Assembly (NCBI GenBank): GCA_036267755.1
Contig: DATAVK010000077.1
Coordinates: 7,855-71,854 of the forward strand
Direction of reading: 5' to 3'
DNA: 64,000 nt
Origin: Mycobacteriales bacterium
GTDB taxonomy: Bacteria > Actinomycetota > Actinomycetes > JAFAQI01
Shown here: positions 4,631 through 18,043 of the stretch, piece after piece
Layout: every line of letters begins with the position of its first letter
Position numbering within the stretch: the first letter of the stretch is position 1
Program-made: the position numbers and the translations under genes
The notes under the pieces: generated by a model
Told to the model about the DNA's origin: nothing
Databases searched by the model: none
The model's input: the letters and a program-made list of their open reading frames with translations, nothing else

Positions 4631-5148
4631 GCCGTCGGCTCCGGTTCGTTCGTCAGTGCGGTGTGACGCACTCGCAGCCCCGTGGGCGCGGTGTCGTAGA
4701 ACGTCATGGCTTGCAGTGGGGGCGAATAGGCGTGGATGCTCACCGCCGGGAGCGCGGAGGGGTTGCTGACGTCGTGGATGACGTCGGGGGCGACCTCGCG
4801 GGTGCCACCGGAGTGCAGAGTCGAGAAGGTCCTCGCGTCACGCTGCCGGGAGGCGCGGACCTCGCTGAGCGTTCCCTCCACGACCGTGAAGGCCGCAGCG
4901 GACCCGCCGTGATCGTGGAAGTCCGTGCCGGTGCCGGTCAGCCAGGTCAGCAGCCAGACCTCGACATCGTCGTCGGAGCGGAGCCGGGTCCACCACCGCT
5001 CGTTCGTCCCGAACTGGACCAGCGGCATCCACGAGGCGGTGTCGGCGGCGACCTCACGGACGATGGCGGCGAGCTCCGTCGTGGGGAGCGGCGGCCGCCT
5101 GACCCGGAGGGTTGCAGAAGACGTCATGACTAAAGCGTACCGAATCAC
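4627..5148 (-). CDS. cysteine dioxygenase type I-like cupin
   Basis: Cupin metal-site residues (FHDHGGSAAAF). Rhodanese-CDO pairing is common in actinobacteria. Exact start uncertain. Confidence 0.7.
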   Translation of the reverse strand: MIRYALVMTSSATLRVRRPPLPTTELAAIVREVAADTASWMPLVQFGTNERWWTRLRSDDDVEVWLLTWLTGTGTDFHDHGGSAAAFTVVEGTLSEVRASRQRDARTFSTLHSGGTREVAPDVIHDVSNPSALPAVSIHAYSPPLQAMTFYDTAPTGLRVRHTALTNEPEPTA

Positions 5149-5210
5149 TTAAGATGGTCAAGTATAAACGGCCAAAGTCACTGCACCGAGTTTCGGGGCA
5201 GGATGGAGGC

Positions 5211-5783
5211 ATGACGGTGGAGCCGGCGCGCGGGAGGTTGCTGGTCGCGTCTCCCACCCTGCGCGAGCCGACCTTTCACCGGACCGTCATCGCGATCCTC
5301 GAGCACACTGACGAAGGCGCATTGGGGGTCGTCGTCAACCGGCCGGGTGACGTGTCGCTCAGCGACGTCGTGCCATCGGTCGCGGACCTCGCCAGCGAGC
5401 CGGCGGTGCTGTTCGCGGGTGGCCCGGTCGAGCCGCAGGCTGCCATCGCCCTGGGCATGGTCCCGGCGGGCAGTGCCGCAACGGTCGGGCCAGCCGAGGG
5501 CTGGCGCCCGGTGGTCCCGCCGCTGGTGACCGTCGACCTGGACCACGACCCGCTCGTCCTGGCCGCCGCGATGCGCGAGCTGCGCGTCTTCGCCGGGTAC
5601 GCCGGATGGAGCGCGGGCCAGCTGGAGTCGGAGATCGCGGCGGGAGCCTGGTACGTCGTGGATTCGTTGCCGCTCGACCCGTTCTTCCCGGCACCCGAGC
5701 GGCTATGGTCCGCTGTCTTGCGCCGGCAGCCGTGGCCGCTGTCGGCGGTCGCCCACTTTCCGCTCGACCCGACGCAGAACTGA
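5211..5783 (+). CDS. YqgE/AlgH family protein (UPF0301)
   Basis: Typical YqgE/AlgH sequence (GRLLVASPTLREPTFHRTVIAILEH...GALGVVVNRP). Start chosen at an internal ATG of ORF 5154..5783. Confidence 0.75.
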   Translation: MTVEPARGRLLVASPTLREPTFHRTVIAILEHTDEGALGVVVNRPGDVSLSDVVPSVADLASEPAVLFAGGPVEPQAAIALGMVPAGSAATVGPAEGWRPVVPPLVTVDLDHDPLVLAAAMRELRVFAGYAGWSAGQLESEIAAGAWYVVDSLPLDPFFPAPERLWSAVLRRQPWPLSAVAHFPLDPTQN

Positions 5784-5792
5784 GGTCATCGC

Positions 5793-6716
5793 ATGAGCCA
5801 GCGCACGGCACCCAGCGGTCAGCAGTGGCCGATCCGGCACGGTGACCACCAGGCGGTCGTGGTCGAGGTAGGCGGTGGCCTGCGCAGCTACCAGGTCGGG
5901 GACCGGCAGGTGCTTGACGGGTACGACGTCACGGCGATGGCGGACGGCGCCCGCTGCCAGACGCTGGTGCCGTGGCCGAACCGGGTGCAGGACGGGGTCT
6001 GGCACCACGATGGCACCGCGATGCAGCTGACCTTGACCGAGCCGGAGCAGCGCAACGCCATCCATGGTCTGGTGCGATGGGCCGCGTGGACGGCGGTCGA
6101 GCGCTCCGACGCCGCGGTGACCGTGAGCTGCAGGTCGTACCCCCAGCCGGGTTACCCGTTCGCGATCGAGGTGAGCAACGCCTGGTCGCTGTCCGACACC
6201 GGCCTCGAGGTCGTCACCACGATCGTCAACCGCGGCGGTGCGCCGGCGCCGGTGGCGTGCGGGTTCCACCCTTACATCACTGCTGGTACTCCGACGGTTG
6301 ACACGGCGACGCTGCACCTGCCGGCCGCCAGCTATCTCCCCACCGGCGCCCAGCAGATCCCCACCGGTCGGGAGAGCGTGGCCGGCACGCCTTACGACTT
6401 CCGCGAGCCGCACCCGATCGGCGACCTCCAGATCGACCACACCCTCACCGACCTCGCCCGCGACGCGGACGGCCGGTTCCGGCTCCGGCTGACCGGCGAG
6501 CGCGAGGTGACGGTCTGGATGGACGAGGCCTATCCCTACGTGGAGGTCTTCAGCGGTGACGCGCTGCCAGATCCCGCACGGCGACGGCAGGGACTCGGCA
6601 TCGAGCCGATGAGCGCCCCGCCGAACGCGCTCGTGACCGGTGAGTCGGTGGTCTGGCTGGCGCCTGACCAGTCGTGGCGTGGCACCTGGGGTATCGAACC
6701 GATCGCTGCGGGGTAA
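5793..6716 (+). CDS. aldose 1-epimerase family protein
   Basis: 307 aa with galactose mutarotase-like motifs (NAIHG, GFHPY). Confidence 0.75.
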   Translation: MSQRTAPSGQQWPIRHGDHQAVVVEVGGGLRSYQVGDRQVLDGYDVTAMADGARCQTLVPWPNRVQDGVWHHDGTAMQLTLTEPEQRNAIHGLVRWAAWTAVERSDAAVTVSCRSYPQPGYPFAIEVSNAWSLSDTGLEVVTTIVNRGGAPAPVACGFHPYITAGTPTVDTATLHLPAASYLPTGAQQIPTGRESVAGTPYDFREPHPIGDLQIDHTLTDLARDADGRFRLRLTGEREVTVWMDEAYPYVEVFSGDALPDPARRRQGLGIEPMSAPPNALVTGESVVWLAPDQSWRGTWGIEPIAAG

Positions 6717-6758
6717 GAGACCGCTACATCCGCCTACGTCCCGCCCGGCTCGGGCTGG

Positions 6759-8438
6759 GTGGCGACGGCCCTACGATCGGGAGAGGACACCGTGGTGCTG
6801 CGCCGCGTCGCCGGACTGCTCAGCGAGACCGTGCACGGTGGCGTCGCGGCCGTTCGGGTCGGAGCCCGCAGCGGGCTGATCCGACCGGTGCGCCCGGACC
6901 GACTGATCGGCATGGCGGACGGTTACCGCCGGTGGGGGATGAGCCCGGCGGCGGCCTACGCGATCGGCGCCGCGCGTGATCCGGGTCGGCTCGCCGTGAT
7001 CGACGAGCGAGAGTCGGTCAGCTATGCCGAGATCCACCGCCGGAGCAGCATCGTCGCGGCCGAGCTCGCCGAACTCGGCGTCGGCTCGGGTGACGCCGTT
7101 GCACTGCTGGCCCGGAACTCCGCGGCGTTCGTCGTGGCGCAGGTCGCAATCTGCAAGCTCGGAGCCGACGTGCTCTACGTCAACACGGGCTTCGCGGGTC
7201 CCCAGCTCGGCGACGTGCTGGGCGACGAGAAGGCCGCCGCGCTGATCGCCGACGACGAGTTCGGCTCCATGATCGACGAGCTCGACGTCTCGATCCCGCG
7301 GCTGACCGCGTGGGTCGACGACGAGAGCGAACCGTCGGACAGCATCGCCGGCCTGGTCGCGGCTGCGCCGGGTGCGGCACCATCGCTGCCGTCGCCCGGC
7401 AGAGACAGCCGGCACGTCATCCTCACCAGCGGTACGACGGGGAAACCGAAGGGTGCGTCGCGCGCGGCTCCGGGTGCGCTCGCCGGGATGGTCGAGGGCA
7501 TCGCCGTACTGGATGCGATCCCGTACCGAGGTCGCGGCGTGACCGTGCTCGCTGCGCCGGCCTTCCACGCCTGGGGGCTTGCGAACCTCACGATTGCGAT
7601 GCTGCTGCAGTCCACTCTCGTGATGCGCCGACGCTTCGATCCCGAAGCGACGCTCGAGCTGATCGAGACCTACCACGCGGACACGCTGGCGGCGGTTCCC
7701 GTGATGTGCCAACGGATCCTCGAGGTGAAGGCCGAGCCCGACACGTCATCGCTGGCGATCGTGTCGCTGTCCGGATCGGCGCTTGCCCCAACGCTCGCCG
7801 AGGCCTTCATGGACCGCTTCGGTGACGTCTTGTACAGCCTGTACGGCTCCACCGAGGTCGCTTACGTCAGCGTCGCGCAGCCACGGGACCTGCGAGAGGC
7901 ACCCGGCACGGCGGGTCGCGTCGTACGCGGCGTCACGGTTCGCATCGTGGATGAGGACGACAACGACGTCGCGCCCGGGGAGACCGGTCGGATCTTCGCT
8001 GGCAGCGCGATGTCGTTCGAGGGCTACACCAGCGGCGAGGACAAGAGCCGGCTCGGCAAGTTGGCGTCCATCGGCGATGTCGGCCGGATCGGTGACGACG
8101 GCCGGCTCTACGTCGAGGGCCGCGACGACGACATGATCGTCTCCGGCGGCGAGAACGTGTTCCCGGCCGAGGTCGAGGAGACGCTGCACCAACACTCCGA
8201 CGTCGCCGATGTGGCCGTGGTGGGAGTCGACGACGAGAAGTTCGGCCAGGCTCTGGTGGCTCATGTGGTGTTGCGTGACGGCGGCTCGGCGAGCGACGAC
8301 GACCTGCGGGCTCACGTGAAGAAGCATCTGGCCGGTTACAAGGTGCCGCGCGAGGTTGTCTTCCACGACGAGCTGCCGCGCAACGAGACCGGCAAGGTGG
8401 TCAAGTCGGAGCTCGCCTCAGAGCCCGATTCCGAGTAG
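6759..8438 (+). CDS. AMP-dependent synthetase/ligase (acyl-CoA synthetase, FadD-like)
   Basis: AMP-binding signature ILTSGTTGKPKGA, C-terminal GKVVK. Start could be a few codons downstream. Confidence 0.85.
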   Translation: MATALRSGEDTVVLRRVAGLLSETVHGGVAAVRVGARSGLIRPVRPDRLIGMADGYRRWGMSPAAAYAIGAARDPGRLAVIDERESVSYAEIHRRSSIVAAELAELGVGSGDAVALLARNSAAFVVAQVAICKLGADVLYVNTGFAGPQLGDVLGDEKAAALIADDEFGSMIDELDVSIPRLTAWVDDESEPSDSIAGLVAAAPGAAPSLPSPGRDSRHVILTSGTTGKPKGASRAAPGALAGMVEGIAVLDAIPYRGRGVTVLAAPAFHAWGLANLTIAMLLQSTLVMRRRFDPEATLELIETYHADTLAAVPVMCQRILEVKAEPDTSSLAIVSLSGSALAPTLAEAFMDRFGDVLYSLYGSTEVAYVSVAQPRDLREAPGTAGRVVRGVTVRIVDEDDNDVAPGETGRIFAGSAMSFEGYTSGEDKSRLGKLASIGDVGRIGDDGRLYVEGRDDDMIVSGGENVFPAEVEETLHQHSDVADVAVVGVDDEKFGQALVAHVVLRDGGSASDDDLRAHVKKHLAGYKVPREVVFHDELPRNETGKVVKSELASEPDSE

Positions 8439-8536: not shown

Positions 8537-11500
8537 ATGAGGTCTTCGGTGCAGCGACTCGGTTCTCGGCGGCTCGGCGCCATCGTCGCCTGCGGGGTGA
8601 TCGGCGGCTCGGCTTTGGTCGCGGCCGGCGGCGTCGCCTCCGCGGCGACCGGCTTGGCGCCGGGCGACCTCGTGGTCTACCGCGTCGGTGACGGGACGAC
8701 AGCACTGTCAGGTACGGCGGCTCCTGTCTTCCTTGACGAGTACACCCCGGCAGGAACCCTGGTCACGTCGGTGCCGATGCCGACGGTGGCGAGCGGTGCC
8801 GGCCAACCGCTCGTTGCGAGCGGCTCGGCGAGCTCGGAGGGGCTGCTTTCGTTGTCCGGCGACGGCCGCTACCTGGTGGCGCCCGGGTACGACGCCGCCG
8901 TCGGTACGACGAAAATCGCGAGCAGCAGCTCGACCGCCGTACCCCGCACGGTCGCCCGGGTCGACGCCAGCGGCACGGTCGACACGTCGACGGCGCTGAC
9001 CGATTTCGCGACTGGGAACAATCCCCGGTCGGCGACCAGCTCCGACGGAACGTCGATCTGGGTGGGTGGCGCTGCTGGCGGACCGCGCTACACCACGCTC
9101 GGCGCCACGACATCGACGGAGCTGGACAGCGGGACCTTCAAGAACGTCCGGCAAGTCGCGGACTTCGACGGCCAGCTCTACGCCTCGGCCGACCCCACCA
9201 AAGCCGGGCTGACGATCGGCACCGTCGGCAGCGGGCTTCCGACCACGACCGGCCAGACCGTCAGCAACCTGCCGTTCGCCCCGCCTCCCGGCGACCCCTA
9301 CGGCTACTCGTTGCTCACGCTCGGCAACGGCACCGCTCCTGACACTTTGTACGAAGCTGACCTCACGGCAGGCGCGGTCGTGAAGTACGGCCTGGTCAGT
9401 GGTAGCTGGGTCGCCGAGGGTTCGGTCCAGGTATCGAGCCCAGAGGGCCTCACTGCGAACGACGACAACGGCACGGTCAGCATCTACGCGACCAGCAGCG
9501 GTGCGAACGGCACCAGCGGCACGGTGTACGCGATCTCCGACAGCAGCGGCGTCGGCGGGACCCTGACCGGCACCGCCACCCCGATCGCGACGCTGCCCGC
9601 CAACGAGGCGGCCCGCGGCATCGCGTTCGCGCCCGGCACGGTGATCGGCACCGGCGGCGGCATCAAGCCGCCGCCCGTCGTCCCGACCATCAGCACCCCA
9701 CGCAGCGCGCTCCCGGCCGCGCTCGGCGACCCCACCAACCCGACACTGCCCGTGACCGTCGGTGATCCGGACGTCGATGCCAGCCAGCTCACGGTCACGG
9801 TCACGTCGTCGGACGCCTCGATCGCTCCCGACGACGGCATCACGATCTCCGGGTCGGGCGCCGACCGGACTCTCACGGTGACGCCAGCCGCCGTCGGCAT
9901 CGCGACCATCACCCTCACCGTGACTGCACCGGATGAGTCGTCGGCCAGCGAGCAGATCCGGTACGGCGTGTCCGCGGACCTCACGGGTGATCTCGGGCCG
10001 CAGGGCTCCGGGCTGCGGTACTACTCCGGCGCGGGAAACGCCTCGGCCGCCGTCGACGTGGGTGGCGGATACGCGGTCGTCGCCGATGACGAGAACGACG
10101 TGCTGCGGCTCTACGACCTGAGCGAGTCCGGCCCGCCGGTGCAGACCTTCGACTTCACCGGGCAGCTGCCGTTCGGGACCAGCGAGGTCGACGTCGAAGC
10201 CGCGGCCCGAGTCGGCAACGTCATCTACTGGGAGGGGTCGATGAGCACCGGCTCGAGTGGCGACCTCGAACCCGCCAGGAGCACGGTCTTCGCGACCAGC
10301 GTGTCCGGCACGGGTGCCAACACGACGCTGACGTATCTCGGCAGCTACACCGGCCTGCTCGGCGACCTGATCGCCTGGGACCAAAGCAATGGCAACGCCC
10401 TCGGGCTGGCCGCCTCGGCTGCCGCCGGAGTCGGTGGTCACGAAGCCGACGCGCTCAACGTCGAGGGTCTCGAGTTCGCGGCCGGCAGCAGCTCGACGGC
10501 GTACCTCGCCTTCCGGGCGCCGCTGGAGCCGACCACCAACCGTCATCTCGCGATGCTCATCCCGGTGACCAACTTCGCCGACCTCGCGACGAACGGGAAC
10601 CCGGGAACCACCCACGCCACGTTCGGATCGCCGATCTTCTTCGACCTCGGCGGCCTCGGTATCCGCGACATCCGCGAGAACGCAGACGGGCAGTACCTCA
10701 TCGTCGCCGGCACCGCGGACGACTCCAACAGCGGATTCGTCCTCTACACCTGGGACGGCAACCCGGCGCACGCGCCGCGACAGACGCAGACCGTCCTTCC
10801 GCAGCTCCCTTCGGCGGACAACCTGGGGGCATGGGAAACCATCGTCAGCACGCCCGATCCGCTCGTGTCGGGTGCGCCGGTCCAGCTGCTCCAGGACGAC
10901 GGCGACGTCGACTGGTACGGCGACGGCCTGACCTCGAAGACCGGCACCGTGACCGACCTGCAGAAGGACCTCGGCGTGGTGTTCGACTACGCAGCGCCGA
11001 CGCCGCAGGCCACAGCGGTGACCGTCACATCGAGCGCCAACCCGACCGCGCCCGGCAAGGCCGTGACCCTCACAGCCACGGTGTCCGGCCTCGCCGACGA
11101 GGCCACGCCGACTGGCTCGGTGACCTTCTCGATCACCGGCGCCGACGGCTCCCACGTCAGCTGCTCCGGGTCCAACACCGTGACCCTCGGTGGCGGAGTA
11201 GCGACCTGCTCGCTCCCGGCCGGCGCGTTGCGGGCGAGCGGATCGGCCTACACGGTGACGGCGAGCTACGCCGGGACCGCCGACGACGCCGGCAGTGTCG
11301 GCACGCTCACCGAGACGGTCACCGGCGCGCCGACAGTGACCGCGGCGGCCGCCGTGACGTTGTTGCCGAAGGCCGGCCGGTCGGTCGCGGTGCTTGCGGC
11401 CGTCATCCCGACCAAGTCCGTCCCCGCGCTGCTCACCGGCTCGGTCATCTTCACGGTGACCGACAGCAGCGGTCACGTCACCGGCACCGGATCGGCAGCG

Positions 11501-11650
11501 CTCACGCCCTTCCTGCCGGTCGCCAGCTTCACCATCCCCGGCGCTGCGCTGCCGGCCGCTGGCACGTACTCGGTGCAGGTCCGGTACTCCGGGGACGAGT
11601 TCTACTCGCCGAGCACGACCAGCTTCAGTCTGCGGATCAGTCGCGCCTAG
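8537..11650 (+). CDS. large secreted multi-domain protein with C-terminal Ig-like (Big-type) repeats
   Basis: 1037 aa. N-terminal signal peptide (RRLGAIVACGVIGGSALVAAGGVASAAT). Thr/Ser/Gly-rich beta-rich regions. Several roughly 90-aa Ig-like repeats at the C-terminus (AVTVTSSANPTAPGKAVTLTATVSG..., VIFTVTDSSGHVTGTGSA...). Confidence 0.7.
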   Translation: MRSSVQRLGSRRLGAIVACGVIGGSALVAAGGVASAATGLAPGDLVVYRVGDGTTALSGTAAPVFLDEYTPAGTLVTSVPMPTVASGAGQPLVASGSASSEGLLSLSGDGRYLVAPGYDAAVGTTKIASSSSTAVPRTVARVDASGTVDTSTALTDFATGNNPRSATSSDGTSIWVGGAAGGPRYTTLGATTSTELDSGTFKNVRQVADFDGQLYASADPTKAGLTIGTVGSGLPTTTGQTVSNLPFAPPPGDPYGYSLLTLGNGTAPDTLYEADLTAGAVVKYGLVSGSWVAEGSVQVSSPEGLTANDDNGTVSIYATSSGANGTSGTVYAISDSSGVGGTLTGTATPIATLPANEAARGIAFAPGTVIGTGGGIKPPPVVPTISTPRSALPAALGDPTNPTLPVTVGDPDVDASQLTVTVTSSDASIAPDDGITISGSGADRTLTVTPAAVGIATITLTVTAPDESSASEQIRYGVSADLTGDLGPQGSGLRYYSGAGNASAAVDVGGGYAVVADDENDVLRLYDLSESGPPVQTFDFTGQLPFGTSEVDVEAAARVGNVIYWEGSMSTGSSGDLEPARSTVFATSVSGTGANTTLTYLGSYTGLLGDLIAWDQSNGNALGLAASAAAGVGGHEADALNVEGLEFAAGSSSTAYLAFRAPLEPTTNRHLAMLIPVTNFADLATNGNPGTTHATFGSPIFFDLGGLGIRDIRENADGQYLIVAGTADDSNSGFVLYTWDGNPAHAPRQTQTVLPQLPSADNLGAWETIVSTPDPLVSGAPVQLLQDDGDVDWYGDGLTSKTGTVTDLQKDLGVVFDYAAPTPQATAVTVTSSANPTAPGKAVTLTATVSGLADEATPTGSVTFSITGADGSHVSCSGSNTVTLGGGVATCSLPAGALRASGSAYTVTASYAGTADDAGSVGTLTETVTGAPTVTAAAAVTLLPKAGRSVAVLAAVIPTKSVPALLTGSVIFTVTDSSGHVTGTGSAALTPFLPVASFTIPGAALPAAGTYSVQVRYSGDEFYSPSTTSFSLRISRA

Positions 11651-12366
11651 CGACTGTCACCGACACCGAGGCTGAAGGCGGTGTCCGACACCGGTACGGC
11701 GTCCTTGGCGGGGAACGTCCGGAACGCGTGGTCGGCGACGTGCACGGTGACCCCGAACCAGTACTTCTCGTTGCGGAAATGGTGCAGCCGATGCGCCCGG
11801 TAGACGTAGCGGTAGTAGCGGCTGCGGGGCCGGTACGTCGAGTGGATGAGGAAGTGCGTCCACTCATACGTCAGGTACATCGCTGACGAGACGAGCATCG
11901 CCATGAACGCCAGCCTGACCGTCGGCGCGACGAGCAGGTAGAACGGCACCTGGGCAAGGCACGTCGCGATCAGGACCGGGCGCGGGACCAGGACCAGACC
12001 GAGGACCTTGGGGTCCCGGTGGTGTTGGCGATGCCGCCTGGCGCCCAGCGGGTCCACCGTGAGTCGCCCTATCGTGCGCGGCTTCCAGTGCAGCACGGTG
12101 ACGTGGATGACCCACTCGGTGAAGGGTTGTAGGCCGAGGATCGCCGCGAGCACCACGGCGTCCCAACGTGACCAGCCGCCGAGCGCGATCCGTACGCCGG
12201 CGAAGACCAGCACGAGCGGCGCGAGCACGCGGGCGCTGAACGTCCTGCTGAAGATCGCCGCCGCCCGGCGCAGACCCAGGCCGGGCCCGGTGTAGTCCTC
12301 AGGCTGGGCCTCGCGACCACTCGGCCGCATCTCGGTGACCGCCACCTGGTCAGTGTGACGCCGCAC
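11647..12366 (-). CDS. fatty acid hydroxylase / sterol desaturase superfamily membrane protein
   Basis: His-box motifs HRQHHRD and HRLHHF in a hydrophobic protein. Its stop overlaps the stop of the convergent large gene at a shared CTAG. Confidence 0.75.
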   Translation of the reverse strand: MRRHTDQVAVTEMRPSGREAQPEDYTGPGLGLRRAAAIFSRTFSARVLAPLVLVFAGVRIALGGWSRWDAVVLAAILGLQPFTEWVIHVTVLHWKPRTIGRLTVDPLGARRHRQHHRDPKVLGLVLVPRPVLIATCLAQVPFYLLVAPTVRLAFMAMLVSSAMYLTYEWTHFLIHSTYRPRSRYYRYVYRAHRLHHFRNEKYWFGVTVHVADHAFRTFPAKDAVPVSDTAFSLGVGDSR

Positions 12367-12461
12367 CGGTTCTCGCGCCAGACCGGTCTAGAGCGCCCGG
12401 ATGCCCGCAAAGGCCGCGTCCCGGGGCCGCCCCGGGTTACCGTGCCTAGGTGGATCCGCTC

Positions 12462-12980
12462 ATGGCACCGACCCTGGCGGCCGCTCTCCTGCTCGTCCTG
12501 GCCGGTGCACCGAAGCTGGTGAATCCGCACGACACCCGCCGTGCGCTGCGCTCGGTCGGGTTCCCGGTTCCAGCGATCGCGGTGCGGGCGGGCGGCCTGG
12601 TCGAGGTGGGCATCGGCACGCTGGCGGTGCTGCACGGCGGTCGGGTCGCCGACGGGCTGGTTGCTGCGTCGTACCTCGGGTTCACCGGCTTCGTCATCGT
12701 GGCGCTGCGCAGCGGGGGAGTCATCGCGTCGTGCGGCTGCGTCGGCCGCCCCGACACCCCGCCGACTCTCGCTCACGTGCTGGTCACGGCCGCGTTCACG
12801 GTTTTGACAGGTGTCGCAGCGGCGGTCGGCTCCACCGGCGTGCTGACATGGACCACGTCGTCCATGTCGACGGTCCACCAGGTGGCCGTCCTCGGGTTCG
12901 CCGTCCTGATCGCCTGGCTCGCGTGGCTCGCCCTGGCGGAGCTGCCGCGGCTGCGGGCCATCGAACGCTTCGTTGCCTAA
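12462..12980 (+). CDS. MauE-like (methylamine utilisation protein MauE / DoxX-like) membrane protein
   Basis: Polytopic membrane protein with a C-x-C in a transmembrane helix (IASCGCVGRP), characteristic of the MauE family. ATG at 12462 is preceded by AGGTGG. GTG at 12450 is an alternative start. Confidence 0.65.
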   Translation: MAPTLAAALLLVLAGAPKLVNPHDTRRALRSVGFPVPAIAVRAGGLVEVGIGTLAVLHGGRVADGLVAASYLGFTGFVIVALRSGGVIASCGCVGRPDTPPTLAHVLVTAAFTVLTGVAAAVGSTGVLTWTTSSMSTVHQVAVLGFAVLIAWLAWLALAELPRLRAIERFVA

Positions 12981-12993
12981 TAAGGGGTTCCAC

Positions 12994-13704
12994 GTGTTGG
13001 CACTGGTCATAGCGGAGGGGGTCGCGGTCGCCCTTCTTGGCCTGCTGGTCGCCGGGTTGCTGCGCAGCCACGCCGAGATCCTTCGCGCGCTGCACGACCT
13101 CGGCGCGGACCTCGATCCTGACGGCCGCGCACCCGTCATCCCGGCCACTCGAGTCGCGTCGCTGCGGGCCGAGGACATCGCGCACGACATCGCGGGGCAG
13201 CGGTTGGACGGCAGTGCCGCGGCGGTCGGCGTGGTCGGCGCGCCCCACGACTCGGTGCTGGCCTTCCTTTCCAGTGGCTGCGCGACGTGCCACCCGTTCT
13301 GGGACTCGTTGCGCGCCGGTGTCTCGCCGGTCGGTGATTCTCGCGTGGTCGTCGTCGTCCAGGACGAGGACAACCGCAGCCGGCTGCAGCAGCTCGCCGG
13401 AGCTGACCTCGACGTGGTCGCCTCGTCACGTGCGTGGGCTGACTACGGCGTCCCGGGTTCCCCGCACATCGTCCAGGTGCACGGCCCGACCGGCCGGGTC
13501 GTCGGTGAGGGCACCGGCCAGACCTGGGAGCAGGTGATGGACTTGCTCAGTCACGGTGATGACGCCCGCCGCGGGTCGAGACAGGAACCCGGGACCGACG
13601 ACCGGGACAACGCCACCCGGATCGACGCCGAGCTCGCTGCGGCGGGGATCGGGCCGGGCCATCCGAGCCTGCACGACGAGCGGCCGCCGCTGGAGACCGG
13701 GTGA
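12994..13704 (+). CDS. membrane-anchored thioredoxin-like thiol:disulfide oxidoreductase (TlpA/ResA/MauD-like)
   Basis: N-terminal TM anchor, then a CxxC thioredoxin motif (SSGCATCHPFW) and a redoxin-like fold. Acidic, disordered C-terminal tail. GTG start with AAGGGG RBS. The ORF track begins at TTG 12973. Confidence 0.7.
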   Translation: MLALVIAEGVAVALLGLLVAGLLRSHAEILRALHDLGADLDPDGRAPVIPATRVASLRAEDIAHDIAGQRLDGSAAAVGVVGAPHDSVLAFLSSGCATCHPFWDSLRAGVSPVGDSRVVVVVQDEDNRSRLQQLAGADLDVVASSRAWADYGVPGSPHIVQVHGPTGRVVGEGTGQTWEQVMDLLSHGDDARRGSRQEPGTDDRDNATRIDAELAAAGIGPGHPSLHDERPPLETG

Positions 13705-13790
13705 GCGGAGCTGCCATCACGCTGGTGCTGGGCGTCGCGGCGGCTGTGGTGGCCGGGCTCCGCGCGACCTGGTCACCTTGAGGTGAGTCG

Positions 13791-14384
13791 ATGCTGGCGA
13801 GCATCAGCCCGCTAGTTGAGCGGGCACCCGGAACCCGATGGTGGCGCCTGGCCGGTTCATACCTGGTCGGGTCGGTCGTCGGTGGCTCGGCCGTGGGCGC
13901 TGCCCTCGGCGCGGTGGGCGAGGCGGTGCGGCTCCGGCACTCGTGGGTCGCCCTCGCCGCGGTCACTGCGGCACTGGCCGTCCTTGCGGCACTTGCCGAC
14001 CTGGCCGGTCGGGTGCCGAGTCGGCGGCGACAGGTGGACGAGACCTGGTTGTCGACGTACCGCGACTGGGTGATCGGGACCGGGTTCGGCGTCCAGCTCG
14101 GCGTGGGGGCGGTCACGATCGTCACCTCCGCGTCGACGTACCTGACGTGGTGGTTCGAGGCGGCCTCGGGCTCCGCTGTCGCGGGAGCGGTGATCGGCGG
14201 CTGCTTCGGTCTGGCGCGCGGCCTGCCATTGCTCAGCATGGCCGGCGTCCGCGACGCGGGCGAGCTGCGTCGGCGCAATGCCGCGATCGTCACCGCTCTG
14301 CCCGTCGCTCGCCGGCTCGCCGTCGGTGCGCAGCTGTCGATCGCCGGCCTGGTCGGCGTCGCCGCCGTTGTGGCGGCTCGCTGA
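13791..14384 (+). CDS. integral membrane protein of unknown function (about 5-6 TM)
   Basis: ATG preceded by GAGGTGA. Hydrophobic throughout. Stop overlaps the next start by 1 nt. Confidence 0.55.
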   Translation: MLASISPLVERAPGTRWWRLAGSYLVGSVVGGSAVGAALGAVGEAVRLRHSWVALAAVTAALAVLAALADLAGRVPSRRRQVDETWLSTYRDWVIGTGFGVQLGVGAVTIVTSASTYLTWWFEAASGSAVAGAVIGGCFGLARGLPLLSMAGVRDAGELRRRNAAIVTALPVARRLAVGAQLSIAGLVGVAAVVAAR

Positions 14385-14830
14385 TGGCGCAGGTGCATGC
14401 CTACGGCCTCTCGCTCGAGGCCCCGACGGGGTGGGACGTTCACGTCTACCGGCGGCAGACCGACGACGGGAGTACGCCGTACCCGATCGTGCACGCCTCG
14501 AACTTCCCGTTGCCGCGACGCCGCGGCGACTTCGGGGTGGGCGCCGTCGAACGGATGTCGCGGGACCACGTGCTCGTGGTGCTCTTCGAGTACGAGCCCG
14601 CCGCGGCGCACACCCCGCTGTTTCGGGTGACCCGCCGGCCGCAGCCGCGGGCTCACGACTTCCACCCCCAGCAGCTGCAGCGCACCGTCCCCGGTCAGAG
14701 CGGGGCCCAGTGGTTCTTCACCGAGGGCAACCGCCCGTTCTGCCTTTACGTCGTCATGGGCGGTCACACCCGCCGCGCCCAGCTGCTGCCCCACGTCCAC
14801 CGGCTGCTCGACAGCCTGATCGTGCACTAG
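14384..14830 (+). CDS. hypothetical cytoplasmic protein (148 aa) in the MauE-like operon
   Basis: ATG at 14384 overlaps the upstream stop (TGATG). No signal peptide. High GC3 codon usage. Internal part of ORF 13838..14830. Confidence 0.5.
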   Translation: MAQVHAYGLSLEAPTGWDVHVYRRQTDDGSTPYPIVHASNFPLPRRRGDFGVGAVERMSRDHVLVVLFEYEPAAAHTPLFRVTRRPQPRAHDFHPQQLQRTVPGQSGAQWFFTEGNRPFCLYVVMGGHTRRAQLLPHVHRLLDSLIVH

Positions 14831-14840
14831 GAGGACGAAC

Positions 14841-16406
14841 GTGGTCACCGAACGCTTGGTCAACAAGGCGTCCGAGCTGCTGTCCCACCGGCTGGGACGG
14901 CGCGGCTTCCTGGTGCGCACCGCCGTCGTCGGCTCGGCCCTCGCGACGTCCGGTCTGGACTACGTGCTCAAGCCGCAGAGCGCCTATGCGTCGGTGTGCG
15001 GGAGCGGCTCGTCCTGCTCATCCGGGTGGACGGCGATGTGCTGCACCATCCACGAGGGCGTCAACCAGTGCCCGCCCGGGAGCTTCGCCGGCGGCTGGTG
15101 GAAGGCCGACGGCGCCAGCCTGTGTGGTGGCAAGGCCCGCTACTACATCGACTGCCAGGGTGAGTGCACCCACTGCGGCTGCGGCGGCGGAGCCTTCTGC
15201 GCCTCGCACTGCCTGAACTGCCGGAGTCACTGCGCCGACGGCTCCTGCGACAAACGGCACGTCTGCCACAACGTCTTCCGGTACGGCCAGTGCGACCGCA
15301 ACCGGCACTGCTCGGGCCCTGTGCTGTGTCGCGCGATCTCGTGCACGCCGCCGTGGAAGTGGGCCGACTGCAGTGATGCCAGCGCCACCGATAACGCGAC
15401 CCGGACCCACTCCGCGTCCTGCCTGTCCGGCTGGACCCACATCGCTAAGCGATACACCGCCCTCGGATCGCAGGGATCGGTCCTCGGCGCCTCCGTCAAC
15501 GGTGAGCACACCTCCGGGCACGCCAAGATCCAGCACTACGTCCATGGCCGGATGTACTGGTCGCAGGACACCGGTGCGCACTATCTCATCGGAAGGGTGG
15601 TCCACCGGTACGACGTGATCGGCCAGAACCATTCGCCGCTCGGCCTGCCGACCTCGGACGCCAAGCGACTCCCCGACCACGGTCTGGCGGCGCACTTCCA
15701 GCACGGCGCGATCTACGAGCGACCGAACGGCAATGCTCACGCGATATGGGGGACGGTCTATACGAAGTGGCATCAACTCGGTGACCAGACCGGCCCACTC
15801 GGATATCCGACGAGCGACGTGGTCGACATCGTGTCCGGCGGGGTGCGGGCGACGTTCGTGCACGGCGGCATCTACAACGGCCCCGACACCGCTGCCCACG
15901 CAGTCTGGGGACCGCTCTACACGACGTACGTCGGGCTAGACCAACAGGCGGGCCTGCTCGGCTTCCCCCGCAGCGACGTGACGGTGAACGCTGATGGGGT
16001 TGGCAGCCACGTCCGCTTCGTCGACGGGATCGTCGAGCGGGACCCGGCCGGCGAGGTGCACTCGCTGTGGGACGCAGTGGGCACCGCGTACATCGCGCTG
16101 GGGGCCGACGCGTCGCCGTTGGGGTATCCCACAACGGACGTCGAGACCGGCAGCGATTCGCCTGACGGGGAGACCTTCGCCAGGTTCGCGACTTTCGTCA
16201 ACGGCACACCAACCCTCAGCGGTTCCATCACGCTGGCCCCGGAAGCCACGACAGCGTTCGGTGTGTGGGGCCCGATCTACACGCAATGGCAAAAAGACGG
16301 CGGCGCCACTGGCGCCCTGGGCTATCCGATTTCGAACGTGACGACCAACTCCGACGGCACCCAGACGTGCACGTTCCAGCACGGGACTCTCACGTACAAC
16401 CCGTGA
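14841..16406 (+). CDS. Tat-exported protein with hyper-cysteine-rich domain and C-terminal LGFP repeats
   Basis: GTG at 14841 preceded by AGGAGGA. Twin-arginine signal (GRRGFLVRTAVVGSALATSG, AYA cleavage region). About 22 Cys between residues 51-195 (CPPG, CTHCGCGGG, SHCLNCRSHC). At least 5 LGFP-type repeats (SPLGLPTSD, GPLGYPTSD, GLLGFPRSD, SPLGYPTTD, GALGYPISN). Confidence 0.7.
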   Translation: MVTERLVNKASELLSHRLGRRGFLVRTAVVGSALATSGLDYVLKPQSAYASVCGSGSSCSSGWTAMCCTIHEGVNQCPPGSFAGGWWKADGASLCGGKARYYIDCQGECTHCGCGGGAFCASHCLNCRSHCADGSCDKRHVCHNVFRYGQCDRNRHCSGPVLCRAISCTPPWKWADCSDASATDNATRTHSASCLSGWTHIAKRYTALGSQGSVLGASVNGEHTSGHAKIQHYVHGRMYWSQDTGAHYLIGRVVHRYDVIGQNHSPLGLPTSDAKRLPDHGLAAHFQHGAIYERPNGNAHAIWGTVYTKWHQLGDQTGPLGYPTSDVVDIVSGGVRATFVHGGIYNGPDTAAHAVWGPLYTTYVGLDQQAGLLGFPRSDVTVNADGVGSHVRFVDGIVERDPAGEVHSLWDAVGTAYIALGADASPLGYPTTDVETGSDSPDGETFARFATFVNGTPTLSGSITLAPEATTAFGVWGPIYTQWQKDGGATGALGYPISNVTTNSDGTQTCTFQHGTLTYNP

Positions 16407-16422: not shown

Positions 16423-17883
16423 TCAGCCGATGGTGGGGCGGTGCATCGCCGGAGCCTCGGGCGCGACGGCGGTCGGCTCGGGGCGCCGGGGACCGAGTCG
16501 CATCAGCGTCGCCGTGGAACCGGCGGGGACGAACTCCCGCATGCCTCGCTCCGCGGTCGACTTGGGCGTGTCCACCACGATCGGGTGCTCCTTGGCGTAC
16601 GCGTCCTGCCGGATTCCGGTGACCTGCCAGGACACCTCGAGGCCGGACGTGCCGCCGGCGATCTGGAACCGGTTGTTCTTGACCGTGCTGGCTACGTAGA
16701 CCGGGGCGTGCGCGCCAATCGTCGTCAGCTGGTAGCGGAAGTCGCGATTCAGCGCGCCGAAGTACTCGGGGAGCTCGACGGTGGCCTTGCCGTCGCCGTC
16801 CAGCACGACGTTGCCGTTGTAGACGTTCATCATGTCCGGCGACTCGACGAACGAATGCGACAGCCAGCGCTGCTCGGGATCCAGTGGATGGTCGATCTTG
16901 AACGACCCGGCGGTCTTCGAGAGCGTGCCGGCCACGTGGGCATTTCCCTGCGACCAGAGCCCGAACGATGCGGAGTTCGACGCCTGGCCGAACACGCCGT
17001 ACGTCTGGTTCGTGCCGGTGTCCGTGGCGAGACCGTACAGGGCGTACGTCGTGCCCTGGCCCCAGACGCCAACGTAACCGGAGTCGCCGCGGACCCCGGC
17101 GGTGCGACCGTTCGCACCCTGGACGCCATACTGCCCGCCGGTCCCACTCACCGCGGCGCCGTTGACGTTCGACGTCGTGCCGGCGACTCCGGTCGTCGAG
17201 CCCGAGCCGTAGACCCCCGTCGACCCGGCTCCGTACACCCCGTACGTACTTCCTGACCCGTAGCTGCCATACGTGCTGCCGGAGGCGTAAAGGCCATAGC
17301 CGCCCCCCGAGGCGTACATGCCGACGCTTCCGCTGCTGGTGGCGCTGAAGATCGCGCCGTAGGACCCGCCGGTGCCACGAACACCCGTGTATCCACCCGT
17401 CCCGGAAACGCCATAGGTGCTCGTCGAGGTGCCGCTGACACCGGTCCCGGTGCTCGAGGTGCCGCTGATCCCGGTCCCCGCTCCTGCAATGCCGCTGATA
17501 GCGCTCGAAGTGCTAGCCGTGCTGGTCGTCGTACCCCGGAGCGTGATGTCGCGCGTGCTCTTCACATCGAGCTGGGACGCCGGACTCTTCGTCCCGATGC
17601 CCACGAGGCCGGCGGCCGTTATCCGCATCCGCTCGGCCACAGACGTGTGCTTCGACGTCCGAGTCTTGAAGATCAGGGCTGCCGGATTGGTGGGCCCGAG
17701 GAAGTTCTTGCTCGTGACCTTCCGGTTGCCACCGAGCTTCCATGTGGTGGAGGCCGAGGCCGCGGACGCGTCGTCCGGCGACGCCACTTCCGTCAGCCCA
17801 ACCGCGGCTGCTGCGGCGGTCCCGGCAAGCAGGAACCGGCGCGGGAATCGTCGTTCGATGGCATCACTGTCGACAGCAGGCAT
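16423..17883 (-). CDS. Tat-exported Gly/Ser/Tyr/Thr short-repeat (fibre-like) protein with conserved C-terminal globular domain
   Basis: Tat motif (RRFPRRFLLAGTAAAAAVG). Long run of degenerate 6-9 aa repeats (GSTYG, SGTGGY, YGVSGT). Non-repetitive C-terminal roughly 190 aa. ATG at 17883 preceded by GGGGGGA. Alternative ATG at 17904. Confidence 0.65.
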   Translation of the reverse strand: MPAVDSDAIERRFPRRFLLAGTAAAAAVGLTEVASPDDASAASASTTWKLGGNRKVTSKNFLGPTNPAALIFKTRTSKHTSVAERMRITAAGLVGIGTKSPASQLDVKSTRDITLRGTTTSTASTSSAISGIAGAGTGISGTSSTGTGVSGTSTSTYGVSGTGGYTGVRGTGGSYGAIFSATSSGSVGMYASGGGYGLYASGSTYGSYGSGSTYGVYGAGSTGVYGSGSTTGVAGTTSNVNGAAVSGTGGQYGVQGANGRTAGVRGDSGYVGVWGQGTTYALYGLATDTGTNQTYGVFGQASNSASFGLWSQGNAHVAGTLSKTAGSFKIDHPLDPEQRWLSHSFVESPDMMNVYNGNVVLDGDGKATVELPEYFGALNRDFRYQLTTIGAHAPVYVASTVKNNRFQIAGGTSGLEVSWQVTGIRQDAYAKEHPIVVDTPKSTAERGMREFVPAGSTATLMRLGPRRPEPTAVAPEAPAMHRPTIG

Positions 17884-18043
17884 GGTGTCCCCCCAAGGCC
17901 ACATGCTCAGCGAATGGCGTCGCCGAGCGCCAATGGTGCGGCAGCATATGCCAGACGTGCCGACTCTGCGGACTGGCGCTAAGGTTCGCCCCGAACCCGG
18001 TTCTAGGGGCTGGGACCGCAGTCACGACCGCGGAGGTTCCTTC

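Follow-up and report, generated by a model that had tools for sequence, protein, structure and literature searches.

The window analysed here is a stretch of 64,000 nucleotides from a Mycobacteriales bacterium (GenBank contig DATAVK010000077.1, positions 7,855 to 71,854; G+C content ~69%). Its open reading frame (ORF) listing contains five consecutive + strand ORFs between positions 12462 and 16406, designated g1 to g5. We consider it likely, judging from sequence comparison, that these genes form an operon that matures one secreted protein, and that they encode an extracytoplasmic thiol-redox system with a selenoprotein form of MauF. By profile comparison, g1, g2 and g3 are homologues of MauE, MauD and MauF, i.e., of all three membrane-associated maturation factors of the methylamine dehydrogenase (MADH) small subunit. 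The candidate cargo is the g5 product, in which a twin-arginine translocation (Tat) signal precedes a Cys-rich domain and LGFP repeats. An in-frame UGA codon in g3 is most likely read as selenocysteine (Sec).

Conservation of the five genes was determined from homologues of g5. The N-terminal 205 residues of g5, used as query, returned 571 database proteins, and a g5 profile search of species-representative genomes gave more than 588 loci. An exhaustive hidden Markov model search found 622 cluster representatives at E≤1e-3, 288 of them at E≤1e-30. The loci analysed were the 80 best-scoring of the more than 588, which biases the sample towards close relatives; two distant members that were fetched independently gave the same picture. 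When the five window proteins were compared with the 80 fetched loci by tblastn, g1 to g4 accompanied g5 almost everywhere, and all four partners lay within 4 kb of g5 in 49 of the 51 loci that had at least 2.7 kb of flank on both sides. The gene order was g1>g2>g3>g4>g5 in 36 of these 49 loci, g1>g5>g2>g3>g4 in 8, g3(-)>g1>g2>g4>g5 in 4, and g1>g2>g4>g5>g3 in 1. The same partners were present in distant Jatrophihabitans endophyticus, where the Cys-rich domain is fused to B_lectin, and in Egibacteraceae, where it stands alone. All hosts were Actinomycetota: Frankiaceae and Frankiales metagenome-assembled genomes (MAGs), Mycobacteriales MAGs, Kineococcus isolates, Angustibacter, Oryzihumus, Jatrophihabitans, Acidimicrobiia and Egibacteraceae. 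The closest relative of the window locus was L001 (97% identity in the N-terminal part of g5). A sequence-only reading of this DNA had proposed that MauE/MauD-type membrane thiol-disulfide machinery is attached to a Tat-exported, Cys-dense wall cargo other than MADH. This idea is supported by the 49/51 synteny and by a cargo that matches no known family; in the distant members also, homologues of the Cys-rich protein keep MauE- and thioredoxin-like neighbours.

Two further features of these loci were observed. A tRNA-Ser(GGA) gene lies directly upstream of the MauE gene in all examined loci of the order g1>g5>g2>g3>g4 (L037, L045, L047, L052, L056, L058 and L076; about 7180-7360 in each). Typical actinobacterial g4-g5 genes with 54% identity also lie on a 1.5-kb contig binned as Chitinophagaceae (L030); mis-binning of this contig is more probable than an occurrence in Bacteroidota.

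The mau cluster of Paracoccus denitrificans PD1222 was retrieved as the Mau reference set, and each of its proteins was tested by hmmsearch and hhalign against family profiles built on the actinobacterial loci. g1 (12462..12980, + strand) encodes a MauE-family membrane protein. It matched Pfam MauE (PF07291) at E=2.8e-13 and 50.7 bits, above the cut-off of 27, and its family profile matched P. denitrificans MauE at 22.9 bits (hhalign 88.8%). The CGC motif reads SCGCVG in the window and SSCGCFG..DTPP in the family consensus. K18 in the first transmembrane helix and E48 in the second are conserved, and lie at helix positions roughly corresponding to those of the MauE Lys and Glu; this equivalence is assumed, not aligned. 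MauE can replace DsbB in Escherichia coli and has a DsbB-like oxidase role; its functional features are a conserved pair of Lys and Glu and a CXC active site, which is placed in a loop on the extracytoplasmic side (bioRxiv 10.64898/2026.03.05.709764). The earlier assignment of g1 to the MauE family is thus borne out, but its placement of the CxC inside a transmembrane helix is not.

g2 (12994..13704, + strand) encodes an N-terminally membrane-anchored, MauD-like thioredoxin-fold protein with a CATC motif, a VPGSP cis-Pro loop and a C-terminal tail. CxxC is invariant in the family (alignment A3). The family profile matched MauD at 37.1 bits (hhalign 95.8%), and the thioredoxin domain was aligned together with its CxxC and cis-Pro loop. 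Weak matches were obtained to TlpA-like PDB chains: 2lrn (E=0.063), YkuV and StoA. A variable, charged linker stands between the thioredoxin domain and the tail, R-I-D-x-E-L-x-A-A-G-I-x-P-G-H-P-S-L-Y (13560-13700, A3), which is conserved in the family and has no counterpart in MauD.

g3 (13701..14384, + strand) encodes a polytopic member of the DsbD/LysE superfamily of membrane proteins, with a length of 227 aa when the UGA is read as Sec. Its family profile matched P. denitrificans MauF over the full length at 93.3 bits (hhalign 98.9%), the TWSPCG motif included. Since g3 is a MauF homologue, the full MauF/E/D trio is present, a closer parallel with the mau system than the sequence-only reading had proposed; that reading had correctly called g3 a polytopic membrane protein, and had missed both the MauF homology and the UGA. 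Scores against the DsbD/CcdA models PF02683 and PF13386 were 18.5 and 19.5 bits, under the cut-offs of 24.9 and 27.1. A two-Cys CcdA/DsbD relay was considered for g3 and rejected; the family has a single conserved Cys/Sec.

That single residue would also suit a transporter of a soft metal or chalcogen (Cu, Hg-like, selenide or sulfide) that supplies the Cys-rich cargo instead of relaying electrons. Homologues of g3 bear the names TauE/SafE and UreH-like, Tat export is typical of cofactor-loaded proteins, and a MerT-like transporter and the SO_0444 Cu/Zn efflux family are among the membrane selenoproteins already described (PMC13188914). However, g3 always occurs with MauE- and MauD-type thiol-redox partners and is homologous to MauF, and the cassette showed neither a metal-binding motif nor a gene for a metallochaperone. 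The MauF phenotype is the loss of the disulfide-rich MADH small subunit, which is a metal-free protein. On balance, a transport function of g3 appears unlikely.

The cargo gene g5 encodes three regions. Residues 1-50 (14841..14990, + strand) are a twin-arginine signal peptide running from RRGFLV to AYA, with S as the next residue. The sequence fits the Tat consensus (GRRGFLV...AYAS), and export is predicted; the score against TIGR01409 was 15.9 bits, just below the cut-off of 16.7. R20, R21 and L24 do not vary across the family, conservation of F23 is at least 90%, and the homologues carry the NCBI name Tat-signal proteins. Residues 51-195 (14991..15425, + strand) form a Cys-rich domain of an undescribed family. 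It contains 22 Cys, of which 12 are invariant in the family, two invariant adjacent Trp, and the motifs CPPG, GWWKAD, RYYIDC and FRYGQC. Residues 205-521 (15453..16406, + strand) comprise five LGFP repeats (PF08310, E=3.1e-46), a cell wall association module that matched two structures of PS1 from Corynebacterium glutamicum (6swz and 6sx4) at E=3e-25. The twin-arginine motif, the 22 Cys in residues 51-195 and the five LGFP repeats had all been recognized in the sequence-only reading, which had also called the cargo uncharacterized. The Cys-rich domain matched nothing in Pfam, NCBIfam, PDB sequence or fold searches; the PDB search gave a chance match only (a pollen defensin, E=5.4), and the fold search was made with a structure model of low confidence (pLDDT 55). 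Across the family, the domain is either stand-alone (~205 aa) or followed by LGFP, CW_binding_2, B_lectin, a PLL-type beta-propeller or DUF4214. Because these C-terminal partners, with the exception of DUF4214, are mainly wall- or carbohydrate-binding, the Cys-rich domain presumably acts at the cell surface.

The parallel with MADH raises the question of whether the Cys-rich domain is itself a very divergent MauA-type protein, with a protein-derived cofactor or cross-links at GWW and FRYGQC, that works on the wall as a redox enzyme lacking a heavy chain. The parallel between the systems is exact in that each joins the MauF/E/D trio to a small, Cys-dense domain with a Tat signal. g5 and MauA also have in common the local pattern CPPGT-x(4-7)-W...C...[YR]xDC, which beyond CPPGT was compared by eye, and g5 has its two invariant adjacent Trp. 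The MADH light-chain (MauA) query was confirmed to be identical to PDB 2bbk_L. Against it, the g5 profile scored -10 bits, and 0/32 family members matched PF02975. One hhalign run gave 0.85%, with an 11-column CPPGT core (A1); the other gave 9.8%, for the signal peptide only. No structural match was found, although the model is of low confidence, and no MauG, MauB or flavoprotein maturase gene was found in or near the cassettes. Membership of g5 in the MauA family was therefore rejected on sequence and fold tests, which leave room for a remote relationship, and we regard the MauA-type explanation as very unlikely. An equally small probability attaches to the conjecture that the chalcogen of MauF installs a cross-link or cofactor around GWW/FRYGQC of the cargo, the Cys-rich domain then being a heavy-chain-less, wall-displayed, redox-active relative of the MADH light chain. 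If MauF were such a catalytic heart, it would be central to a widespread maturation system for Cys-dense secreted proteins, with Cys in methylotrophs and Sec here.

The evidence for Sec in g3 comes from the codon itself, its surroundings and the neighboring genes. When g3 is read from GTG 13701, the frame runs ...GLRATWSP, then TGA at 13779..13781 (+ strand), then GES-M-LASISPL..., giving the motif ATWSP-U-GESML; the mechanically called ORF starts only at ATG 13791, downstream of the TGA. When the TGA was replaced by a Cys codon, the Pfam DsbD_TM match extended across the junction. An in-frame stop occupies this column in 64 of 70 g3 homologues. It is TGA in 64/64 and never TAA or TAG, and the other six have TGC. 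The column coincides with the Cys of authentic MauF (STWSPCGYS). The Ser codon two positions before the UGA is written both as TCN and as AGC. Between the UGA and the following AUG lie two codons whose variation is synonymous throughout (GGC 31, GGT 18, GGG 6, GGA 4; GAG 52, GAA 6). Selection at the amino acid level in this interval, which has no start codon before it, indicates that ribosomes read through the UGA.

Other properties of the g3 genes were noted. The Pro codon before the UGA (13776-13778; A2 columns 4-6) is CCU in 52/59 distinct sequences despite a G+C content of ~70%, and may reflect a context requirement for Sec decoding. The TGC-form genes (L002, L004, L005, L054, L010, L018 and L082) are longer (246-272 aa), and lie either upstream in reverse orientation or behind the cargo gene, whereas Sec forms always lie between g2 and g4. 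This suggests that the Cys and Sec forms are two sub-lineages. Database homologues of g3 are ORFs of 192-197 aa that begin at the downstream Met. The RefSeq proteins WP_380174717.1, WP_166605838.1, WP_166615530.1 and WP_380139403.1 of four Kineococcus species (L060, L067, L044 and L059) are exactly such truncated ORFs, and the truncated RefSeq and UniProt entries are named hypothetical, "sulfite exporter TauE/SafE" or "UreH domain".

Two hairpins lie downstream of the UGA on the + strand. Hairpin 1 (GAUGCU-loop-AGCAUC; 13790..13805; A2 columns 18-33) is 100% paired, is invariant even at synonymous sites, and was recovered in the minimum free energy (MFE) fold. Hairpin 2 (13807..13825), a candidate Sec insertion sequence (SECIS) element, consists of a stem of 7 bp and a G-rich loop of 5 nt, the loop starting 35 nt from the U of the UGA. 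Its covarying pairs are 35-53 (CG<->GC, 14-16 sequences), 36-52 (CG>UG>UA) and 40-48 (CG>UA); 96% of its alignment cells are paired (97.9% overall), vs. 34-57% when the 3' partner is slid. The two-hairpin MFE fold was obtained for the window, L060 and L084, and hairpin 2 only for L016. The same TGA and hairpins as in window g3 are present in L001. The hairpins are absent from the Cys form L082 on folding and, by eye, from the six Cys forms aligned. In L016 (positions 4789-7664), an Actinomycetales MAG, sel genes directly follow the cassette: a selD-like gene with AIRS domains on the - strand, tRNA-SeC (5855-5949), selA (PF03841, E=3e-90) and the N-terminus of selB. A Frankiales MAG has a tRNA-SeC with anticodon TCA ~7 kb downstream of the cassette (L009, 16375-16470). 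Neither a tRNA gene nor a motif resembling SelB was found in the 64-kb window, which covers part of its source genome. Together, the UGA in the Cys column, the SECIS-like fold and the sel genes nearby make up a recoding signature.

If the UGA were a true stop, g3 would consist of a 26-codon micro-ORF, encoding one transmembrane helix that ends in TWSP, and a 197-aa ORF re-initiated at the AUG nine bases downstream. Gene callers and RefSeq start g3 at this Met. A conserved GAGG that overlaps the UGA could serve as Shine-Dalgarno sequence, U-GAGG-NGAG-UCG-AUG resembling a ribosome-binding site (RBS) with 7-nt spacing, and TGA is the commonest stop codon in high-GC actinobacteria. However, the break would then hit exactly the sole Cys column conserved between MauF and the Cys forms, with near-invariant flanks on both sides, and TAA and TAG are never used in 64 sequences. 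Purely synonymous variation from the UGA to the AUG is expected only if the interval is translated. Hairpin 1 sequesters the AUG and hairpin 2 covaries, which suits a SECIS element and not an initiation region, and sel genes adjoin the cassette in L016. We consider a true stop highly improbable and read the codon as Sec.

g4 (14384..14830, + strand) encodes a 148-aa protein without signal peptide; it had no sequence or profile match in Pfam, NCBIfam or PDB, in agreement with its earlier description as a cytoplasmic protein of no known family. A confident structure model showed a Mog1/PsbP-like alpha-beta sandwich fold that is shared with immunity proteins of type VI secretion systems. Among its matches were PA0094 and SciW, which we take to be Eag-type chaperones. 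g4 is a candidate cytoplasmic binding or chaperone protein. MauJ was rejected as an identity for g4, which showed no similarity to MauJ or any other Mau protein in profile comparison.

Gene content, homologies, conserved synteny and the recoding signature are shown by the sequences, whereas the model that follows, with its direction of electron flow, its selenol partners and its role for g4, is inferred. The g4 protein would act in the cytoplasm as a Mog1/PsbP-fold binding protein, a chaperone for the precursor or signal peptide before export. The g5 product, a disulfide-dense domain fused to wall-binding LGFP repeats, would then be exported by Tat. The MauE homologue g1, quinone-linked and DsbB-like, would oxidize its CGC and pass disulfides to g2, and membrane-tethered g2 would oxidize or isomerize the cargo cysteines on the outer side of the membrane. 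g3 would provide a single membrane-embedded selenol, Sec being inserted at the UGA with help of the downstream stem-loop. This selenol might exchange with the CxxC of g2, with g1, or with the cargo through transient selenylsulfides. Because g3 has no second Cys, it would not be a DsbD-type two-cysteine relay. It may rather be a reductive, isomerizing or proofreading branch, efficient in an oxidizing environment, for a cargo with 11 potential disulfides. A rival assumption, that the cargo Cys ligate Fe-S or metal centers built in the cytoplasm while the Mau-like proteins protect or repair thiols outside, would fit the invariant Tat signal, the dense CxxC/CxC/CxxxC spacing in g5 residues 105-142 and a possible role of g4 as Tat proofreading chaperone, but is most improbable in view of the CxxC-rich middle segment, which is deleted in many members, the scattered positions of the 12 invariant Cys, the lack of a ferredoxin-like or other cluster-binding Pfam match, and the experimentally shown oxidase activity of MauE (bioRxiv 10.64898/2026.03.05.709764).

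Several observations weigh against a selenoprotein-containing thiol-redox system of this kind. Only one Cys/Sec column is conserved in the g3 family, and the DsbD/LysE superfamily to which g3 belongs is dominated by ion transporters. Since the sequencing of mau clusters in the 1990s, no mechanism has, to our knowledge, been assigned to MauF. Single-sequence folding gave the hairpins modest z-scores (-1 to -2.2), and hairpin 1 does not covary. g2 matches no Pfam or NCBIfam redoxin, TlpA or AhpC-TSA model, whereas authentic MauD matches AhpC-TSA, Thioredoxin_2 and Redoxin models; g2 is therefore MauD-like and not a demonstrated orthologue. The earlier call of an anchored TlpA/MauD-like protein with CATC holds for the MauD profile match but gains nothing from curated redoxin models. 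g2 also has more basic residues after its transmembrane helix than before it, so that its extracytoplasmic orientation rests on analogy with MauD. Finally, Tat normally exports folded proteins, which is awkward for oxidative folding after export; the MADH small subunit shows the same paradox.

The structure of the predicted operon was examined by reading the junctions. g1 starts at ATG 12462, preceded by the RBS AGGTGGA, and stops at TAA 12978-12980. g2 starts at GTG 12994 after AAGGGG, and its TGA stop (13702-13704) overlaps GTG 13701 of g3 (GTGA). The TGA stop of g3 (14382-14384) in turn overlaps ATG 14384 of g4 (TGATG). g4 stops at TAG 14828-14830, which is followed by GGAGGA and by the g5 start GTG 14841; g5 ends at 16406. 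The five co-directional genes, with two overlapping and two short-gap junctions, were thus placed correctly in the first description. The unit is bounded by a divergent gene upstream (start 12366, - strand) and a convergent gene downstream (end 16423). The intergenic region 12367..12461 (+ strand, sequence read) is the presumed promoter region and includes the g1 RBS. A promoter and terminator scan was uninformative; it found no sigma-70 consensus, which says nothing in a high-GC actinobacterium. An Rfam scan of the operon gave chance matches only, and no Rfam model fits the hairpin region.

Genes flanking the window cassette are not conserved across the 80 loci. The divergent neighbor (11647-12366, - strand) encodes a fatty-acid-hydroxylase-family membrane protein (PF04116, E=5e-16), kept beside the cassette only in the near-identical locus L001. 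The convergent neighbor (16423-17904, - strand) encodes a 493-aa protein in which a Tat-like signal (RRFPRRFLLAG) is followed by a long repetitive stretch rich in Gly, Ser and Thr and by a globular C-terminus; it matches no family, and other loci do not keep it beside the cassette. Further upstream and outside the conserved cassette, 8537-11650 (+ strand) encodes a secreted protein of 1037 aa that contains two Ig-like domains of the Big_3_5 type and weakly matches DUF3616.

As far as our tools show, three things are new: a fixed five-gene cassette with a MauF homologue and a Mog1/PsbP-fold protein, a large undescribed Cys-rich domain family with wall-binding partners, and a putative selenocysteine form of MauF. 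If the UGA reading is true, g3 adds a family of membrane-embedded selenoproteins, with candidates in Frankiales, Kineococcus, Mycobacteriales MAGs, Acidimicrobiia and Egibacteraceae, and its systematic entry in RefSeq and UniProt as a truncated "TauE/SafE" or "UreH-like" ORF is a mis-annotation. Sec in place of the one conserved Cys of MauF would mark this residue as a functional, probably redox-active, center, and provides a testable lead. The MauF/E/D trio turns out to be a portable module, here placed on a wall-displayed, disulfide-dense domain family (622 cluster representatives). Cultivable Kineococcus species, among them Kineococcus sp. DHX-1, K. siccus and K. vitellinus, carry the cassette, and experiments are therefore feasible.

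The absence of a described system of this composition, claimed in the sequence-only reading, agrees with our comparison as regards the cassette as a whole, but mauE and mauD beside Cys-rich precursors had already been noted in 2020. In that study, decRiPPter found Streptomyces candidate RiPP (a peptide made by ribosomes and modified after translation) clusters with these genes, outside methylamine metabolism (PMC7794033). Unlike g5, the decRiPPter precursors are short predicted peptides with at least 8 Cys, and the clusters were not reported to contain MauF, Sec, a Tat-signal domain, g4 or wall-binding modules (PMC7794033); they may overlap with our cassette set. No paper in the library searched names both MauF and selenocysteine, and a 2026 inventory of 119 prokaryotic selenoprotein families contains no MauF-like, SPUGES or DsbD_2-like single-Sec family (PMC13188914).

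Among thiol-redox relays of the DsbD/CcdA type (CcdA-ResA, DsbD-DsbC), g3 resembles the membrane component in its weak DsbD_2 and DsbD_TM matches, its first-helix SP-C/U and its thioredoxin-fold partner. Unlike these proteins, g3 scores below the Pfam cut-offs and has one conserved redox residue vs. two. TsoB (rhodanese/DsbD fusion, NF045694) and SO_0444 (NF033936) also have Sec in a polytopic membrane protein, and Cys homologues of both exist (PMC13188914). Their motifs (UxxxxU, UxC) and taxa differ from those of g3, which matches no NCBIfam model, the TsoB and SO_0444 models included. From their names and general knowledge, we presume that both have a DsbD-related fold.

The mau clusters of P. 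denitrificans and Methylobacterium extorquens are a close counterpart. Homologues of MauF, MauE and MauD lie here beside a Tat-signal, Cys-dense domain, and the TWSPCG motif of MauF (Cys there, UGA here) and the CxxC of MauD are conserved. Unlike in the mau cluster, the cargo has no detectable relation to MauA and is fused to wall-binding modules, g4 is an extra gene, and the host belongs to Actinomycetota, without methylamine context. MauB, MauG, MauJ, MauM/N and amicyanin are not encoded in the cassette, consistent with the earlier statement that the MADH heavy chain and MauG are missing, and MauB and MauG are also not found among the called neighbors in L082 and L084. The generalist MauE (bioRxiv 10.64898/2026.03.05.709764) likewise combines CXC with Lys/Glu, and g1 has a thioredoxin-fold partner adjacent to it, as predicted in that preprint, which makes no mention of MauF, selenocysteine, Actinomycetota or a g5-type cargo. 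Unlike the generalist MauE, g1 is part of a fixed five-gene cassette that appears to be dedicated to one substrate.

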